From a virus (taxonomy: Duplodnaviria; Heunggongvirae; Uroviricota; Caudoviricetes), in the IMG/VR virus record IMGVR_UViG_2529292830_000018: a DNA stretch of 42,618 nucleotides, one strand, 5' to 3'. The translations under genes and the position numbers were made by a program. Below the pieces are notes generated by a model. That model searched no databases. It was not told the origin of the DNA and saw nothing but the letters and a program-made list of their open reading frames with translations. Position 1 is the first letter of the stretch. Every line of letters starts with the position of its first letter. Below, in pieces: positions 30,576-37,421 of the stretch.

Positions 30576-31273
30576 ACACTTGCTCCTTTTAGTCCGAACT
30601 TAGCTTTGATTTCTGCGATCTTCGCCAGAGCCTGTGCACGATTTAGAGGTCTACCGCCCATGACAGGAAGTTGTTTTACTGGTTCAGGGATCGCCTCACC
30701 ACGGTTAATTCTCGCAGTCATATGGACAAGCTCATCTGCGGCCTTACGGCGTAATTCCGCATCAGTAAGCGCATTGGCCCGCATGTTCTGATACAGGTTG
30801 GTAACCAGCCAGTAGTGCGCGTTTGATTTCCACGGATAAGACTCCGCATCCGGATACAGGCCTCGCTTCCGGCAATACTCGTAAACCATATCAACCAGCT
30901 CGCTGACGTTTGGCAGTCCGGCGATAACGGATGCTTCTTCCCGGCACCATGCAACAAACTGCCCGGGTGATGGCAGAAATGGTCGATTCTGCCGACGGGC
31001 TACGCGCATTCCTGCGTTAACCTGTTCCATCGTGGTGATCCCGTTTTCCCGAAAAGCCAGAACCCACTGGCGACGGATTTCGTTCACTTCGTTCTGGTCA
31101 CGGTTAGCCAGGCTCGCCGGGAAAGTTGCCAGTAACTGGCTGAACACACCGTTGATGATCTGCGCTACCTGCTGTACCTGCGGCTTTTCATCGTACTGTT
31201 CCGGCATGTTGTTGGCGATCCGACGCATCTGCTCACGGTCAAAGTTAACCATCTGTGCGGCGATGTTTTTCAT
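30572..31273 (-). CDS. P: Replication protein P (DnaB helicase loader)
   Basis: 233 aa; matches recalled lambda P throughout. Confidence 0.95.
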   Translation of the reverse strand: MKNIAAQMVNFDREQMRRIANNMPEQYDEKPQVQQVAQIINGVFSQLLATFPASLANRDQNEVNEIRRQWVLAFRENGITTMEQVNAGMRVARRQNRPFLPSPGQFVAWCREEASVIAGLPNVSELVDMVYEYCRKRGLYPDAESYPWKSNAHYWLVTNLYQNMRANALTDAELRRKAADELVHMTARINRGEAIPEPVKQLPVMGGRPLNRAQALAKIAEIKAKFGLKGASV

Positions 31274-32169
31274 AGATCCACCCCGTAAATCCAGTCTGTG
31301 TTTGTCAGGTCGAGTTTTGGTTTGCTGGCTGTCACGCCTGCCTGTTGCTTGTTACGGTTGATTTCGAGTTGGGTCCACTTATCGCGGAGTTTGGCCGGGC
31401 TCAGCACGTTACCGGACCAGAAGTTGTCCTGGCATGCCCAGCGGAACAGCACGCACATGTCGCGGTGGTTACGTCCGTCACGTTCACGCATCAGGCGGAT
31501 ATCGTTAGCCCACCCAGCAAAATTCGGTTTTCTGGCTGATGGTGCGATAGTCTTCACCATGTCAAACATCCACTCTGCGGCGGTCAGGTCTTCTGCTGTC
31601 CCCCACTTGCTGCCGCTCTGAATTGCAGCATCCGGTTTCACCACAGAAAGGTCGTTTTCTGGCTGGTCAGAGGATTCGCCAGAATTCTCTGACGAATAAT
31701 CTTTTCTTTTTTCTTTTGTAATAGTGTCTTTTGTGTCCCCCTGTTTTGAGGGATAGCAATCCCCCAATTTGAGGGATGTTTTATCCCTCGTTTTAGGGGA
31801 TTTTCCCTCGTTTTGAGGGATACACCATTCTGAGATGTTTTTATTTGGTCCAAACATGCCGCCTTGCTGCTTGATAATATTCATTCTGACGAGTTCTAAC
31901 TTGGCTTCATTGCACCGTTTGACGGGTAACTTTGTAATCTCGCTAAGTTGAGAATCGGTGATTCTGTCCATTGGTTTATTCCACCCATAGGTTTTACGCA
32001 GAATGGCAAGCAGCACTTTAAACTGTCGCTTGGTCAGATCTGCGCCCGAATAAGCCTCAAGCAGCATATTTGATAGTCTGGCGTAACCATCATCGAGATC
32101 TGCCACATTACGCTCCTGTCCGGCAAAGTTACCTCTGCCGAAGTTGAGTATTTTTGCTGTATTTGTCAT
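31270..32169 (-). CDS. O: Replication initiator O
   Basis: 299 aa; MTNTAKILNFGRGNFAGQERNVADLDDGYARLSNMLLEAY matches lambda O; ori iterons lie inside the gene. Confidence 0.95.
   Translation of the reverse strand: MTNTAKILNFGRGNFAGQERNVADLDDGYARLSNMLLEAYSGADLTKRQFKVLLAILRKTYGWNKPMDRITDSQLSEITKLPVKRCNEAKLELVRMNIIKQQGGMFGPNKNISEWCIPQNEGKSPKTRDKTSLKLGDCYPSKQGDTKDTITKEKRKDYSSENSGESSDQPENDLSVVKPDAAIQSGSKWGTAEDLTAAEWMFDMVKTIAPSARKPNFAGWANDIRLMRERDGRNHRDMCVLFRWACQDNFWSGNVLSPAKLRDKWTQLEINRNKQQAGVTASKPKLDLTNTDWIYGVDL
31690..31825. other. Replication origin (lambda-type: four iterons plus AT-rich region) inside O
   Basis: Four copies of ~TCCCTC(N)TTTGAGGGA at 31737-31821; adjacent AT-rich tract at 31693-31725. 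Confidence 0.85.
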
Positions 32170-32179
32170 AATGACTCCT

Positions 32180-32256
32180 GTTGATAGATCCAGTAATGAC
32201 CTCAGAACTCCATCTGGATTTGTTCAGAACGCTCGGTTGCCGCCGGGCGTTTTTTA
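32180..32256 (+). ncRNA. oop: OOP antisense RNA
   Basis: GTTGATAGATCCAGTAATGACCTCAGAACTCCATCTGGATTTGTTCAGAACGCTCGGTTGCCGCCGGGCGTTTTTTATT matches recalled lambda OOP RNA including its terminator hairpin; antisense to the cII 3' end. Confidence 0.8.
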
Positions 32257-32498
32257 TTGGTGAGTCCATCAAGCGCATACTTAAAAGCCCTGCTAATCGG
32301 ACTGATGTCTGATGCCATTCCGAAAGCACACAAGACCGAAGCAATAAACCGCCAGTCCGTTCTGCTTATCTTCGATTCATGACAGCCAATCATCTTTGCC
32401 AGACCGCGCTGGGTAAGCGTTGACAGGTTGATGAGTAAATCAGTTTCTGCGCGATCAACGTCACGCTGTGATAGTTTGCTGTAACTTGTTCGTTCCAT
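32202..32498 (-). CDS. cII: CII-like transcriptional activator (chimeric: non-lambda N-terminus, lambda-identical C-terminus)
   Basis: 98 aa; C-terminal LTNKKRPAATERSEQIQMEF equals lambda CII, N-terminal ~75 aa differ but keep an HTH-like segment. Confidence 0.75.
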   Translation of the reverse strand: MERTSYSKLSQRDVDRAETDLLINLSTLTQRGLAKMIGCHESKISRTDWRFIASVLCAFGMASDISPISRAFKYALDGLTNKKRPAATERSEQIQMEF

Positions 32499-32598: not shown

Positions 32599-32636
32599 CG
32601 TAGGACGAATGTCCATTGTGAAAATAGCGGTGTTAC

Positions 32637-32846
<210 letters not shown>

Positions 32847-32861
32847 TTAGTACATGCAACC

Positions 32862-32927
32862 ATTATCACCGCTAGAGGTAAAATAGTCAACACGCACGGT
32901 GTTAGATATTTATCCCTTGCGGTGATA
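32862..32927. promoter_or_regulatory. oR operators (OR1-OR3) with pR and pRM
   Basis: TATCACCGCTAGAGGTA (32864-32880), CAACACGCACGGTGTTA (32889-32905), TATCCCTTGCGGTGATA (32911-27); pR -35 TTGACT and -10 GATAAT on the minus strand. Confidence 0.9.
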
Positions 32928-32934
32928 GATTTAA

Positions 32935-33651
<717 letters not shown>

Positions 33652-33658
33652 CACGTAA

Positions 33659-34096
33659 ATGATTAAAGAACGTATTTCTTATATCATTCCGATTGCGATG
33701 GATGAAGGCAACCCAGTAACTCCAGTTCTTATCTATGAAATGGATAAAGACTCCCATGAAGTGGATCTATCATTTGGCGCTTTTTTTATCGGCCTTAAGG
33801 CTACAAAAAAATATTCCATAGGCATTGAGGTTTTCAATGCTCAAGAAATACCGATACCAATTGACACAAAACTGTACTCCAACCATAAGTTTTTTACGGT
33901 AGCAGAAGCCAACGATGGAGAAACCATCGTATCAACTTCTATGAGAATTAACTTCCCAAGGGTGAAAATTATCAAGCCTGGGATATTCGAAGTTAGAGCA
34001 TCACTGGTTAATCCTGATAAAGGCGAAGTAATTGATGTAAAAAGTTCGTTTTTTGACGTGAAGATAACAGGATCAGTTCGCGATGAGTTTAGATAA
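33659..34096 (+). CDS. Hypothetical protein occupying the rexA position (no similarity to RexA seen)
   Basis: 145-aa AT-rich ORF starting 8 bp after the cI stop; no TM segment; predicted soluble. Confidence 0.5.
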   Translation: MIKERISYIIPIAMDEGNPVTPVLIYEMDKDSHEVDLSFGAFFIGLKATKKYSIGIEVFNAQEIPIPIDTKLYSNHKFFTVAEANDGETIVSTSMRINFPRVKIIKPGIFEVRASLVNPDKGEVIDVKSSFFDVKITGSVRDEFR

Positions 34097-34454
34097 CAAG
34101 GTTGCTCAGCTTCGTCCAAATCAAAACATATCTCGCCCAATTGGACACTATTCCACTGATGATGCATACTCACGGCATGGTGGAGGAAACGGCGGAGGTA
34201 ACATGCTTGAGGCTAGAGTTGCAAAGCTAGAGTCTGATGTTGAATACATCAAGCGCGATCTCGCTGAAGTAAAGTCAGATATAAAATCTGTAGATTCTCG
34301 TCTGTCAGGTATTGAGACAAGCATTAGCTCAGCAAAAATCACCATCAAGGCATCTGCGGTCGTTGTCAGTTTCGTGTTCGCATTTTGCGCCTACATTTTT
34401 GGAAGTTATGTTTCCAAAATCCTTGATGCCTTAAACGGACTCGTTCTTAAGTAA
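34083..34454 (+). CDS. Hypothetical coiled-coil protein with C-terminal transmembrane helix, occupying the rexB position
   Basis: 123-aa ORF overlapping the upstream ORF by 14 nt; alternative start at 34203 (GGAGGT-aac-ATG, 83 aa). Gly-rich stretch, amphipathic coiled coil, hydrophobic helix AVVVSFVFAFCAYIFGSYV. Confidence 0.45.
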   Translation: MSLDNKVAQLRPNQNISRPIGHYSTDDAYSRHGGGNGGGNMLEARVAKLESDVEYIKRDLAEVKSDIKSVDSRLSGIETSISSAKITIKASAVVVSFVFAFCAYIFGSYVSKILDALNGLVLK

Positions 34455-34461
34455 CACACAA

Positions 34462-34487
34462 CCCGGCCTCAGCGCCGGGTTTTCTTT
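34462..34487 (+). terminator. Rho-independent terminator ending the cI operon (tImm-like)
   Basis: Stem CCCGGC/GCCGGG followed by TTTTCTTT. Confidence 0.65.
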
Positions 34488-34643
34488 GCCTCACGATCCC
34501 CTTCACCCAATAACACATAACCAATTGTATTTATTTGAAAATTAATAGATACAACTCACTAAACATCGCAATTCAGATCTCTCGATCACCTCCCAAGCCA
34601 CACACCCCTGCAAAAAAATAAATCTATATAAAAAACATACAGA

Positions 34644-34713
34644 TAACCATCTGCGGTGATAAATTATCTCTGGCGGTGTTGACATAAATACCACTGGCGG
34701 TGATACTAAACAC
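34644..34713 (+). promoter_or_regulatory. oL operators and pL promoter (lambda type)
   Basis: TAACCATCTGCGGTGATA, TATCTCTGGCGGTGTT, TACCACTGGCGGTGATA; -35 TTGACA (34679-34684), -10 GATACT (34701-34706). Confidence 0.9.
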
Positions 34714-34775
34714 ATCAGCAGGACGCACTACTCACCAGGGCGGTGAATATACAACGATTCGAATATGAATCTACG

Positions 34776-34955: not shown

Positions 34956-35339
34956 ATGACACGCAGAACTCAGTTCAAAGGCAATTCACGTTCTCGTCGT
35001 CGTGAGCGTTTAAAGGCAAAGGCATTAGCTAACGGCGTACTGGCCCGCGAAGAAGCAATAAGTTCAGAAGTATTACACCGCCCTACTCTAAGCAGAGCGC
35101 AGATTCAGGCTAAAGGTACTCACAAAACGCCTGAGCGCATAGAAGACGCTAAGCCAATTAAGTTCATGGCACAGGACGTGATCTGGCAACAGAAAGAATA
35201 CAGACGCAATCTGGAGAGAGCGGCCATTGTGTACGCGAATGAGTTTGGACATAAGCAACCAGAAACTGGTGTATGTCTTCCAAATGTAGCTCTTTACGCA
35301 GCAGGATACCGGAAATCAAAACAACTGACGGCGAGGTAA
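34956..35339 (+). CDS. N-type antiterminator (P22 gp24-like)
   Basis: 127 aa; Arg-rich motif GNSRSRRRERLKAKA; C-terminus LPNVALYAAGYRKSKQLTAR resembles recalled P22 gp24; RBS AGGAGG. Confidence 0.75.
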   Translation: MTRRTQFKGNSRSRRRERLKAKALANGVLAREEAISSEVLHRPTLSRAQIQAKGTHKTPERIEDAKPIKFMAQDVIWQQKEYRRNLERAAIVYANEFGHKQPETGVCLPNVALYAAGYRKSKQLTAR

Positions 35340-35734: not shown

Positions 35735-36229
35735 TTAATAATTTGTCAGCGGCGGAACATATACAGGCTTAGGGGCTGGCGCTCTATACATCCGGTATTC
35801 ATTCTTACAGCGAGGACATGAATGCACAAAGAATCCATTAGATTTTATAGTAACCGTGCTTGGTTGAAGTATCGATATTTTATGTTCGCCGAAGCAATGT
35901 GCACAAAGGTTATGCTGCTGAATAGAAGGATCGGAATGACTCTTAGGTCGATACACGACAGAACCACCTTCAGTTGTATGAAGTTCATAATTCTCAGCTT
36001 GCACAACAAACATCTTGATTTTTCTATTTTCATCTCGAAGCTTCATTGCGATCTCCTTCTCGGCCTGATAAAGGCCAGAGAGCTCCGCATTAAGCATCTG
36101 TAAGTCAGTTATTCTTTGGTGTAGATCACCAATAGCTTTAGCGATAACAGCATCATCTCTGGTTTCTTTTATTGTCTTCAGCAGATCATAAGCCTGTTTC
36201 GCGGCAGTTATACCAGATAATACATCCAT
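35735..36229 (-). CDS. Hypothetical coiled-coil / zinc-ribbon protein, transcribed against pL
   Basis: Start at MDVLSG (ATG 36229; track allows GTG at 36238); C-terminal CAHC...CPRC motif; AT-rich; opposite in orientation to all neighbours. Confidence 0.5.
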   Translation of the reverse strand: MDVLSGITAAKQAYDLLKTIKETRDDAVIAKAIGDLHQRITDLQMLNAELSGLYQAEKEIAMKLRDENRKIKMFVVQAENYELHTTEGGSVVYRPKSHSDPSIQQHNLCAHCFGEHKISILQPSTVTIKSNGFFVHSCPRCKNEYRMYRAPAPKPVYVPPLTNY

Positions 36230-36245
36230 ATAAATCACTCTCTTA

Positions 36246-36290
36246 CTGTAGGGGTAAGAGGATTTTACTATTTTTCTCGCTGTAGGGGTA
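36246..36290. promoter_or_regulatory. Direct repeats CTGTAGGGGTA flanking a putative promoter
   Basis: Identical 11-mers at 36246-36256 and 36280-36290, 34 bp apart, in the divergent intergenic region 36230..36432. Confidence 0.4.
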
Positions 36291-36432
36291 CACGAGAACC
36301 ACCGAGCCTGATGTGGTTAAAAGACAGGCACAATCTTTACTACCGCAAGCCACGCAGTGAAATTGGTGTGACTTGTGTTGGTCGCCAGAAAATGAAATTA
36401 GGCAGCAAACTACTTATTTGAGAGGAATTAAT

Positions 36433-37056
36433 ATGTCATCAATCCGCTTAACTACGAGAATGAAAGAGGAAATCGCTCGTAACGCTTTAATTAAGTCTGG
36501 GGTCTTCACTGAACTTGAAGAAGTAACAAAGTTAAAGAACCAGCTTGCACTTGACGCCAGAGTTATTGCGTTTGGCGGTAAAAAGAAAACTGAGGAAGTG
36601 GATCAGTTATCATCCAAGTTGGTAGCTATAAGTGAAGAACTTGAAAAGATGGGATGTTCATTTTACTCATACGATGTTAGTTCTACTTCAATTTATCTGA
36701 CTGTATCTGGCAGAAGGGTTGGATGGCATTCATATGGGAAAGACGGCAACGGCGAAGATATATTGCTCCCTACTCCGACCAAAGATAAATGCATGTTTAG
36801 CGCAGAACACGAAATAACAAAAAGGTTTGATGAAATCTGCGCATTGCAACAAAAACTTGAAGCCAAGAAAAAGGATATCGAATCAAATGTATGGGCTGCT
36901 TTGAACTCAGTCACAACAGTTAAGCGACTTATTGAGGTTTGGCCTGAAAGCAAAGAATTGCTACCAAAAGAAGCAGATAAAGCAAGTACAGCACTTCCTG
37001 CTTTACGGGTAGAAGATTTGAATAAGATGATTGGACTTCCTTCCGAGGCCGCATAG
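36433..37056 (+). CDS. Hypothetical protein
   Basis: Start at MSSIRLTTRMKEEI (ATG 36433) preceded by GAGGAA; 207 aa; own terminator. Confidence 0.5.
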   Translation: MSSIRLTTRMKEEIARNALIKSGVFTELEEVTKLKNQLALDARVIAFGGKKKTEEVDQLSSKLVAISEELEKMGCSFYSYDVSSTSIYLTVSGRRVGWHSYGKDGNGEDILLPTPTKDKCMFSAEHEITKRFDEICALQQKLEAKKKDIESNVWAALNSVTTVKRLIEVWPESKELLPKEADKASTALPALRVEDLNKMIGLPSEAA

Positions 37057-37072
37057 TCGGCCTTTATTTTTG
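37046..37072 (+). terminator. Rho-independent terminator
   Basis: Stem AGGCCG/CGGCCT spanning the stop codon, followed by TTATTTTTGG. Confidence 0.6.
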
Positions 37073-37094
37073 GCATAACCAATATGGGGTAAAA

Positions 37095-37421
37095 ATGAAA
37101 GTTTTAATGGTTTATGAAAATGTTCCAGAGTCGACTGAAATCTATATTTTTGATGCCAATGAAGATGAAGTTAACGATTTGAAATTGTCTCACGGCAATT
37201 ACACAAATGCTAATTGTGATGAAAGTATCGAAAAAGCACTATCACGTGTTCTTGTCAGAATTAGTGTTCCAGAACATTGTGATGATGATTGGCTTTCTTA
37301 TTGTGGAGCGGTAAAAACTGATGCAGGAAAATGGAGTAAAAGTAAAGTTGATAACTCAACTCCAATCATTATGAAAGATAGTGATATTGAAATGGTAATA
37401 ATAACCGGAATGATTATGTAG
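37095..37421 (+). CDS. Hypothetical protein (AT-rich)
   Basis: 108-aa ORF; followed by a long hairpin (37437-37473). Confidence 0.45.
   Translation: MKVLMVYENVPESTEIYIFDANEDEVNDLKLSHGNYTNANCDESIEKALSRVLVRISVPEHCDDDWLSYCGAVKTDAGKWSKSKVDNSTPIIMKDSDIEMVIITGMIM

Follow-up and report, generated by a model that had tools for sequence, protein, structure and literature searches.

Introduction

The interval between cI and N in lambdoid prophages is a known diversity hotspot, holding rexAB in lambda and bstA in prophage BTP1 (PMC8585504). Gifsy-1 of Salmonella Typhimurium 14028s carries different cargo beside its repressor gene gfoR (PMC9879122), and in Salmonella phage epsilon34 Villafane et al. (2008) placed genes 44 and 45 "like rexA and rexB" and reported no matches for them (PMC2629481). 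This rex slot is the classic exclusion site of lambdoid prophages, and most of its cargo is uncharacterised. A partial architectural parallel lies elsewhere, in prophage PBSX of Bacillus subtilis, where the genes run in the order xepA (encoding a beta-sandwich), xhlA, xhlB and xlyA, and xhlA is needed for lysis (PMC6834076). Here we analyse a two-gene cassette that occupies the rex slot in a 42,618-nucleotide stretch of DNA from a virus of the Caudoviricetes (IMG/VR record IMGVR_UViG_2529292830_000018). This whole stretch is termed the window, positions are those of the window, and the two overlapping open reading frames (ORFs) are termed ORF1 and ORF2.

A first-pass annotation, made from the sequence alone, had described the pair as a soluble partner plus a small membrane protein and nominated it as a candidate abortive-infection or exclusion system. 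That description of the two products is correct. We reason that the cassette is a mobile two-gene moron of the lambdoid prophage repressor operon, whose function is most likely the exclusion of other phages at the inner membrane; this is the best reading of the locus, and it is drawn only from position and architecture. Rex-slot cargo that pairs a soluble with a membrane protein is of a kind already known. What is new here comprises the protein families themselves, their interchangeable partner types, a recombination breakpoint in the linker of ORF2, and a possible nested product.

Results

Exact replacement of rexAB behind a lambda-type repressor gene

The window is oriented opposite to the standard lambda map. 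Comparison with lambda by blastn gave two matches flanking the cassette: window 32623-33647 corresponds to lambda 38255-37231 at 97.7% identity, from cro through cI, and window 34460-34746 corresponds to lambda 35826-35550 at 89% identity, covering tImm and oL/pL and beginning one base past the rexB stop codon. Because the two matches end at these points, the 812 bp between them stand exactly for lambda 35827-37230, a segment of 1404 bp that contains rexB, rexA and the cI-rexA spacer in the lambda annotation. The earlier assignment of the pair to the rexA-rexB slot is thus confirmed as an exact replacement, and both overlapping ORFs lie at the coordinates first reported for them.

The start codon of ORF1 follows the cI stop codon by 7 nucleotides and the two ORFs overlap by 14; a terminator scan found none in the interval between cI and ORF1, and the sole terminator that it located (34460-34481) is the tImm-homologous hairpin 6 nucleotides past the ORF2 stop codon. 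The pair is therefore positioned for co-transcription with cI, as had been proposed. By this layout cI would be the first gene of the lysogenic transcription unit, and the pair would be expressed in the lysogen as rexAB are; the presence of pRM is taken from homology to lambda. The precision of the replacement, the close spacing of the genes and the single tImm-type terminator all support the assignment of the cassette as an exclusion moron.

The same slot is variably filled in related prophages. Of 5426 complete Escherichia coli genomes, 618 carry a lambda-type cI over its full length but only 99 carry rexAB, and many of these 99 are K-12 laboratory strains. Other cargo behind the same cI includes a 129-residue ORF (O157:H7 86-24), a 180-residue ORF with a DUF1828 protein (O104:H4 2011C-3493) and, in another isolate, a 301-residue ORF. 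In otherwise related prophages, then, the cargo that follows the repressor gene on its own strand differs, in the manner of a hotspot for morons. The cargo of Gifsy-1 (STM14_3218-3220), considered as a possible instance of the pair, proved to be other cargo in the same slot (PMC9879122).

Homologues and distribution

Sequence comparisons indicate that ORF1 and ORF2 are real genes and not chance reading frames. Ratios of nonsynonymous to synonymous substitution (dN/dS) of 0.10-0.22 for ORF1 and 0.15-0.40 for the N-terminal extension of ORF2 denote purifying selection. Protein searches with ORF1 retrieved 20 close clusters and those with ORF2 retrieved 73, a profile of divergent partners retrieved 81, and a library of 1.84 billion representatives yielded 122 matches, of which some 100 are stand-alone proteins 140-150 residues or so in length. 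All homologues with a named source derive from Enterobacterales. The family is compact, the pair taking up about 800 bp, and it comprises some 100 protein clusters from across that order. At the DNA level the cassette is 78% identical to genes 45/44 of epsilon34. It is present in 16 of the 5426 E. coli genomes, among them enteropathogenic E. coli E2348/69, where it is 100% identical.

Its presence in E2348/69 bears on the possibility that the pair is a lysogenic-conversion factor, serving the host as a haemolysin, in virulence or in envelope stress, and unrelated to phages. The name "hemolysin XhlA" that NCBI gives to homologues of ORF2 points the same way, as does the virulence role that Niu et al. 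(2015) proposed for an XhlA-domain protein (haemolysin) encoded beside cI in a Mannheimia phage (PMC4553209). The haemolysin label, however, derives from a sub-threshold Pfam match driven by the coiled coil (see below), and ORF2 lacks a signal peptide and is by prediction almost wholly cytoplasmic. The cassette is also rare, and its E. coli carriers include pig, chicken, cattle and ground-beef isolates and so are not only pathogens. A host-directed role is accordingly highly improbable in our estimation.

A conserved pair behind diverse repressors

Co-occurrence of the two genes, which the first-pass annotation had raised as a point to check, was surveyed in 80 viral loci obtained by scanning viral contigs with an ORF2 alignment, partners being called by ORF analysis. 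A same-strand ORF of about 90-190 residues abuts or overlaps the start of the ORF2 homologue at 77 of the 80. Among 44 distinct partners, 37 fall with ORF1 in one BLAST single-linkage cluster, at identities down to about 24%, and six are zinc-ribbon proteins (CxxC...CxxC). The gene directly upstream of the partner is a repressor gene at 63 of 78 loci, the product being of the S24 peptidase/LexA type at 35 (including at least nine divergent, Pfam-verified representatives) and a short helix-turn-helix protein of about 128 residues (Phage_CI_repr) at 28; an Arc-like protein takes this position at three further loci. Judged by these neighbours, the pair is a conserved module behind repressors of several unrelated immunity types.

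The zinc-ribbon proteins constitute a second, unrelated class of partner on the same conserved ORF2-type core. They are 110-132 residues long (CPICxS...CxxCG) and occur at loci L027 (4578-4961), L051-L054 and L066 (4639-4971). A minority of these variant pairs is inserted in tail gene clusters. At L053 (4520-5252) the pair lies between gtr-like glycosyltransferase morons with a DUF6246 protein on one side and the tape measure gene on the other, and at L051 (4541-5273) its neighbours are the tape measure gene and the baseplate hub gene. Such moron-like behaviour, with zinc-ribbon pairs in tail clusters and in one case beside gtr-like morons, supports the view of the cassette as mobile cargo.

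A mobile, moron-like pair of small genes that overlap, the upstream one encoding a soluble protein and the downstream one a small holin-like membrane protein, could also be a toxin-antitoxin-like stabiliser, ORF2 being the membrane toxin and ORF1 its neutraliser, with no specific sensing of phages. We consider this very unlikely: no match to known toxin-antitoxin families was obtained in Pfam, NCBIfam or PADLOC, immunoglobulin (Ig)-like and zinc-ribbon partners would be atypical antitoxins, and the pair is steadily placed in a repressor operon and is not an autoregulated unit. The line between this explanation and abortive infection is in any case blurred, since many toxin-antitoxin systems are abortive-infection systems.

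Exchange at the glycine-rich linker and a possible nested product

How the module varies became apparent when 47 distinct loci were compared in pairs. At partner identities of 70% or more, the N-terminal extensions of ORF2 are 75-100% identical, with coiled-coil/transmembrane (TM) cores that fall as low as 29-39%; conversely, 29 locus pairs combine partners of less than 25% identity with ORF2 cores of 75% identity or more. These alignments indicate that the partner and the N-extension are exchanged as one block against the coiled-coil/TM core. The match to epsilon34, like that to the H20/H21 variants of E. coli, breaks off at 34199-34207, on the glycine-rich linker. In H20/H21 (NZ_CP125889, NZ_AP027570) and in P0084, P0085 and P0091, ORF1 and the N-extension are retained with another coiled-coil/TM core, and for alleles of the H20/H21 type DNA homology stops at window position 34199, exactly on the linker.

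The linker also holds a possible internal start codon. In all 42 distinct homologues the frame from this conserved ATG or GTG (Met41, at 34203) is open back to the stop codon of the partner, the other two frames over the same stretch containing 184 and 32 stops; the long form of ORF2 is therefore translated, and its translation is probably coupled to that of ORF1. A G-rich element resembling a Shine-Dalgarno (SD) sequence stands 4-10 nucleotides upstream of the internal start, again in 42 of 42, and GGA accounts for 31% of the glycine codons in the linker stretch. A nested product of 83 residues, the size of XhlA, is plausible from this arrangement. The combination of internal SD-like element and ATG recalls the nested in-frame products of P22 SieB/Esc and of the lambda S107/S105 holin/antiholin, to which ORF2 has no sequence similarity. 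A weak sigma-70-like promoter site at 34142-34170 (TGGACA-17-CATACT, 9/12 positions), inside the N-extension and about 30 nucleotides upstream of the internal SD element and ATG, was set aside as being at chance level (six such sites found, 4.7 expected); its position recalls that of lambda pLIT, which lies inside rexA.

ORF1, a predicted Ig-like module

ORF1 has a predicted isoelectric point of 5.4, and hydropathy analysis revealed no hydrophobic segment in it. The description of both ORFs as AT-rich holds for ORF1 (37% GC, against 46% for the window) and only slightly for ORF2 (43%). Searches of Pfam, NCBIfam and PADLOC gave no match to ORF1, and searches of PDB sequences, with the single sequence and with a profile, gave nothing; the PHROG family that includes it has no assigned function. 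An AlphaFold2 model built from an alignment of 48 homologues is an eight-stranded beta-sandwich (predicted local distance difference test score 88.3, predicted template modelling score 0.83), with significant structural matches to Ig-like/E-set beta-sandwiches and no likeness to solved structures beyond the generic Ig-like fold. As modelled, ORF1 is a soluble Ig-like binding module that bears no catalytic signature.

ORF2, a predicted tail-anchored coiled-coil protein

In the AlphaFold2 model of ORF2, residues 1-41 are disordered and residues 42-121 form one long helix. The heptad repeat of its coiled coil runs over residues 45-86, and its a/d positions are V45, L48, V52, I55, L59, V62, I66, V69, L73, I76, I80 and A83, and hydropathy analysis gives a single TM segment, so that the glycine-rich stretch, coiled coil, C-terminal TM helix and internal GGAGGT-ATG noted from the sequence are all present. 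The family alignment shows strong conservation of the TM helix and of the tail, SKILDALNGLVLK. The PHROG family of ORF2 likewise has no assigned function. Searches of PDB sequences matched only coiled coils (among them phage tail needles and GCN4 fusions), and searches of Pfam and NCBIfam gave only sub-threshold coiled-coil matches; the coiled coil matches XhlA, FlaC and phage tail-needle coiled coils weakly.

A membrane-anchored protein that is presumably expressed with the repressor and is predicted to lie in the inner membrane could act at the entry step. In such superinfection exclusion, ORF2 would block genome injection, with ORF1 as its chaperone or stabiliser, and the cell would not die. 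DNA injection is blocked in this way by HK97 gp15, P22 SieA and T4 Imm, and the gene for HK97 gp15 lies in a tail gene cluster, a setting shared by the variant pairs that occur as morons among tail genes. A possible contact surface for a membrane component of host or phage would be offered by the conserved TM helix and, on the periplasmic side, by the short tail SKILDALNGLVLK. Yet by prediction ORF2 lies almost wholly in the cytoplasm, only some 13 residues following the TM helix; to our knowledge the known superinfection exclusion proteins act alone; and a conserved but interchangeable cytoplasmic partner, Ig-like or zinc-ribbon, is hard to fit with a passive block. We judge an entry block quite unlikely.

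The likeness of ORF2 to XhlA (PF10779) amounts to 19.3 bits (E 0.0013), below the gathering threshold of 34.7 bits. Among 39 ORF2 family members, 26 match PF10779 at E ≤ 0.01 (best E 8e-6), and more of them (29) match the coiled-coil family FlaC_arch. Because the XhlA match is sub-threshold and no better than those to other coiled-coil families, the NCBI name "hemolysin XhlA" on homologues of ORF2 should be read as an architectural resemblance only.

That resemblance nevertheless belongs to the evidence for another explanation, in which the pair regulates the life cycle of its own phage, at the lysogeny-lysis switch or in the timing of lysis, as an XhlA analogue of holin-accessory or antiholin-like character or as a modulator of a membrane protease. 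The beta-sandwich gene xepA directly precedes xhlA in PBSX (PMC6834076), the nested start recalls holin/antiholin pairs, and the rex slot is known to hold modulators of the switch, namely RexA/RexB (bioRxiv 10.1101/2021.04.19.439022) and 434 Hex (PMC3564112). Against this, the pair lies outside the lysis cassette and apart from the late genes; it is dispensable, the same cI being followed in phages of lambda immunity by different cargo or by no cargo; it is mobile between phages whose repressors and lysis systems are unrelated; and XepA and YomS are not among the structural matches listed for ORF1. We judge regulation of the phage's own cycle, too, quite unlikely.

Layout of the immunity region

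Coordinates of the cassette and its surroundings are collected in Table 1. A promoter scan placed a pR-like site at 32890-32862 and a pL-like site at 34679-34707, and the oL operator sequences are readable. The first-pass annotation had called the immunity region otherwise lambda-identical, which holds out to about 34746 and fails beyond it: the lambda match ends near that position, and the immunity region is therefore a mosaic whose lambda-type part stops just past pL. The N gene (34956-35339; 127 residues, PHROG 271) belongs to a different N family from that of lambda and is about 73% identical in DNA to the N-like gene of epsilon34.

Two further ORFs were noted in this part of the window. 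One, of 167 residues (35735-36238, minus strand; PHROG 1244, with no assigned function), lies inside the pL operon and is a possible second moron; its product combines an N-terminal coiled-coil-like region with a zinc-ribbon motif (CxxC...CxxC). The other, an antisense ORF of 110 residues (33841-34173, minus strand), is most likely a shadow ORF; it runs across the junction of the two genes, opposite the 3' half of ORF1 and the beginning of ORF2.

Table 1. Coordinates of the two-gene cassette, its parts and the neighbouring immunity-region features.
Feature	Position	Strand	Basis or remark
O	31270-32169	-	ORF list
cII	32202-32498	-	ORF list
cro	32637-32837	-	ORF list
oR/pR/pRM region (cro-cI interval)	32838-32937		inside the 97.7% lambda match
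cI, lambda-type repressor, 237 residues	32938-33651	+	ORF list; blastn against lambda
Replacement interval, 812 bp	33648-34459	+	ends of the two lambda blastn matches
ORF1, 145 residues, predicted soluble Ig-like beta-sandwich	33659-34096	+	PHROG 5893; variable partner of the module
ORF2, 123 residues, predicted tail-anchored membrane protein	34083-34454	+	PHROG 6136
ORF2 N-terminal extension, variable, predicted disordered, residues 1-32	34083-34178	+	varies together with partner type
ORF2 glycine-rich linker GGGNGGGN	34179-34205	+	recombination breakpoint; possible nested start
SD-like GGAGGT (34195-34200) and internal ATG (34203-34205, Met41)	34195-34205	+	GGAGGT-N3-ATG, in the glycine-rich linker
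ORF2 coiled coil, six heptads, residues 42-86	34206-34340	+	
ORF2 C-terminal TM helix (about residues 89-110) and 13-residue tail SKILDALNGLVLK	34347-34451	+	hydropathy
Intrinsic terminator, lambda tImm homologue	34460-34491	+	8-bp stem with six GC pairs, then T-run
oL operators and pL promoter, lambda type	34640-34712	+	within the 89% lambda match

Discussion

A working model for exclusion

The interpretation that we favour, though tentatively and at somewhat less than even confidence, is that the pair has an abortive or exclusion function of the sensor/effector type. A variable partner on a conserved membrane core, as the family comparisons suggest, fits such logic, and the architecture of ORF2 is analogous to that of the holin-associated XhlA of Bacillus prophages. 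In the lysogen both proteins would be made from the pRM transcript together with cI. ORF1, or elsewhere the zinc-ribbon protein, would hold the N-extension of ORF2 and so keep the membrane-anchored coiled-coil core inactive, until a product of an infecting phage bound the variable partner. ORF2, once freed, might form oligomers by way of its coiled coil and its TM helix and damage the membrane, by holin-like depolarisation or premature lysis, whereby the infection would be aborted; the N-terminally truncated form of 83 residues may modulate full-length ORF2.

Several points weigh against this interpretation. Neither homology nor experiment links the pair to defence. In PADLOC-DB v2.0.0 no known defence family was recovered, ORF1 having no match and ORF2 weak coiled-coil matches only (CorA-like, E 0.004; LmuB, E 0.03). 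The lambda rex genes also have non-defence roles, as described in a preprint (bioRxiv 10.1101/2021.04.19.439022), and position in the slot is for that reason no proof of defence by itself. The generic Ig-like sandwich predicted for ORF1 supports no functional inference, and within its subfamily ORF1 is, by its substitution pattern, under purifying and not diversifying selection. Co-variation of partner and N-extension could follow from physical linkage alone. The XhlA match is driven by the coiled coil and falls short of the Pfam threshold. Consecutive glycine codons yield an SD-like sequence almost automatically, and the argument for the nested start therefore draws mainly on the conserved methionine. 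Finally, the pair had been presented as undescribed. This is accurate as to function, a literature search by accessions, PHROG identifiers and XhlA with defence terms having found no functional study of it; as to the genes it is not, the epsilon34 homologues having been noted as rexAB-like in 2008 (PMC2629481) and NCBI having named the homologues of ORF2.

A more elaborate version of the sensor/effector model, speculative and in our view rather unlikely, would see in the module a prophage immune system of modular build that has so far gone unrecognised. A cytoplasmic sensor of interchangeable type (Ig-like here, zinc-ribbon elsewhere) would be tethered to the variable N-extension of a conserved, tail-anchored effector of XhlA/holin-like character, release triggered by a phage would lead to oligomerisation and permeabilisation, the 83-residue form would confer self-immunity or act as a modulator, and new specificities would arise by recombination at the glycine-rich linker.

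Should the pair prove to be a defence system, it would supply a new type of effector and a simple model of how prophages shuffle sensor and effector halves, and it would set right the annotation "hemolysin XhlA", which is misleading and has already been taken to denote a virulence factor. If it is not one, it still represents a widespread function of the lysogeny operon. The anatomy of the pair is clear: a soluble binding module that can be swapped, a conserved membrane anchor with a coiled coil, of a type associated with phage lysis, and a likely nested product.

Comparison with known systems

RexA/RexB of lambda share with the pair the slot between cI and tImm/oL, the co-orientation of two genes with cI, and the combination of a soluble with a membrane protein. 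The proteins themselves are unrelated: family profiles gave hhalign probabilities of 0.2% for ORF1 with RexA and 0.6% for ORF2 with RexB, and homology was rejected at these values below 1%, in keeping with the absence of similarity noted at first. RexA is a 279-residue DNA-binding protein (PMC11077077), whereas ORF1 is a 145-residue protein with a predicted Ig-like sandwich. RexB, of 144 residues, is a multi-pass membrane protein, whereas ORF2 combines one TM helix with a coiled coil; the cassette is about 600 bp shorter than the rex interval of lambda. BstA of prophage BTP1 occupies the same slot behind the repressor, presumably with a shared promoter, a placement described as the conserved architecture of this abortive-infection protein (PMC8585504). 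BstA is a single protein that acts at sites of phage DNA replication (PMC8585504), and it has no sequence relationship to the pair, for which PADLOC gave no meaningful match. The Tai systems (PMC11364771) were dismissed as unrelated.

With XhlA of PBSX, ORF2 has in common a small size and an architecture of N-terminal coiled coil and C-terminal TM helix. It differs in its additional N-extension and in its location, XhlA being encoded beside a holin and an endolysin and ORF2 in the immunity region between cI and pL. The parallel between xepA-xhlA and ORF1-ORF2 is intriguing; XepA, however, is an exported two-domain pentamer of 279 residues, unlike ORF1, and because neither XepA nor YomS was among the structural matches listed for ORF1, we retain the parallel as an analogy only.

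Lambdoid phages of Mannheimia haemolytica, such as vB_MhS_3927AP1 (KP137439, 1966-3546; locus L090), offer a parallel to this architecture in the Pasteurellaceae, with a similar series of cI, a 126-residue zinc-ribbon protein (gp59) and a 161-residue coiled-coil protein with a single TM helix (gp58), which is annotated as XhlA/haemolysin. The zinc-ribbon protein resembles the enterobacterial zinc-ribbon partner (BLASTP, E 2e-6). Unlike ORF2, gp58 carries its TM helix in the middle and a long coiled coil towards its C terminus; its match to XhlA is sub-threshold (24 bits), and it is not significantly similar to the profile of the ORF2 family (hhalign probability 7%).

True homologues of both genes occur in epsilon34, where, as also in g341c and NM-3, the pair likewise lies behind the repressor gene. 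The epsilon34 repressor, gp46, has another N-terminal DNA-binding domain and hence an immunity other than that of the lambda-type cI. Its gp45 is 74% identical to ORF1, and the first 67 or so residues of ORF2 are 61% identical to gp44 (tblastn); in its coiled-coil/TM core, by contrast, gp44 represents another allele, 37% identical to that of ORF2 and swapped at the glycine-rich linker.

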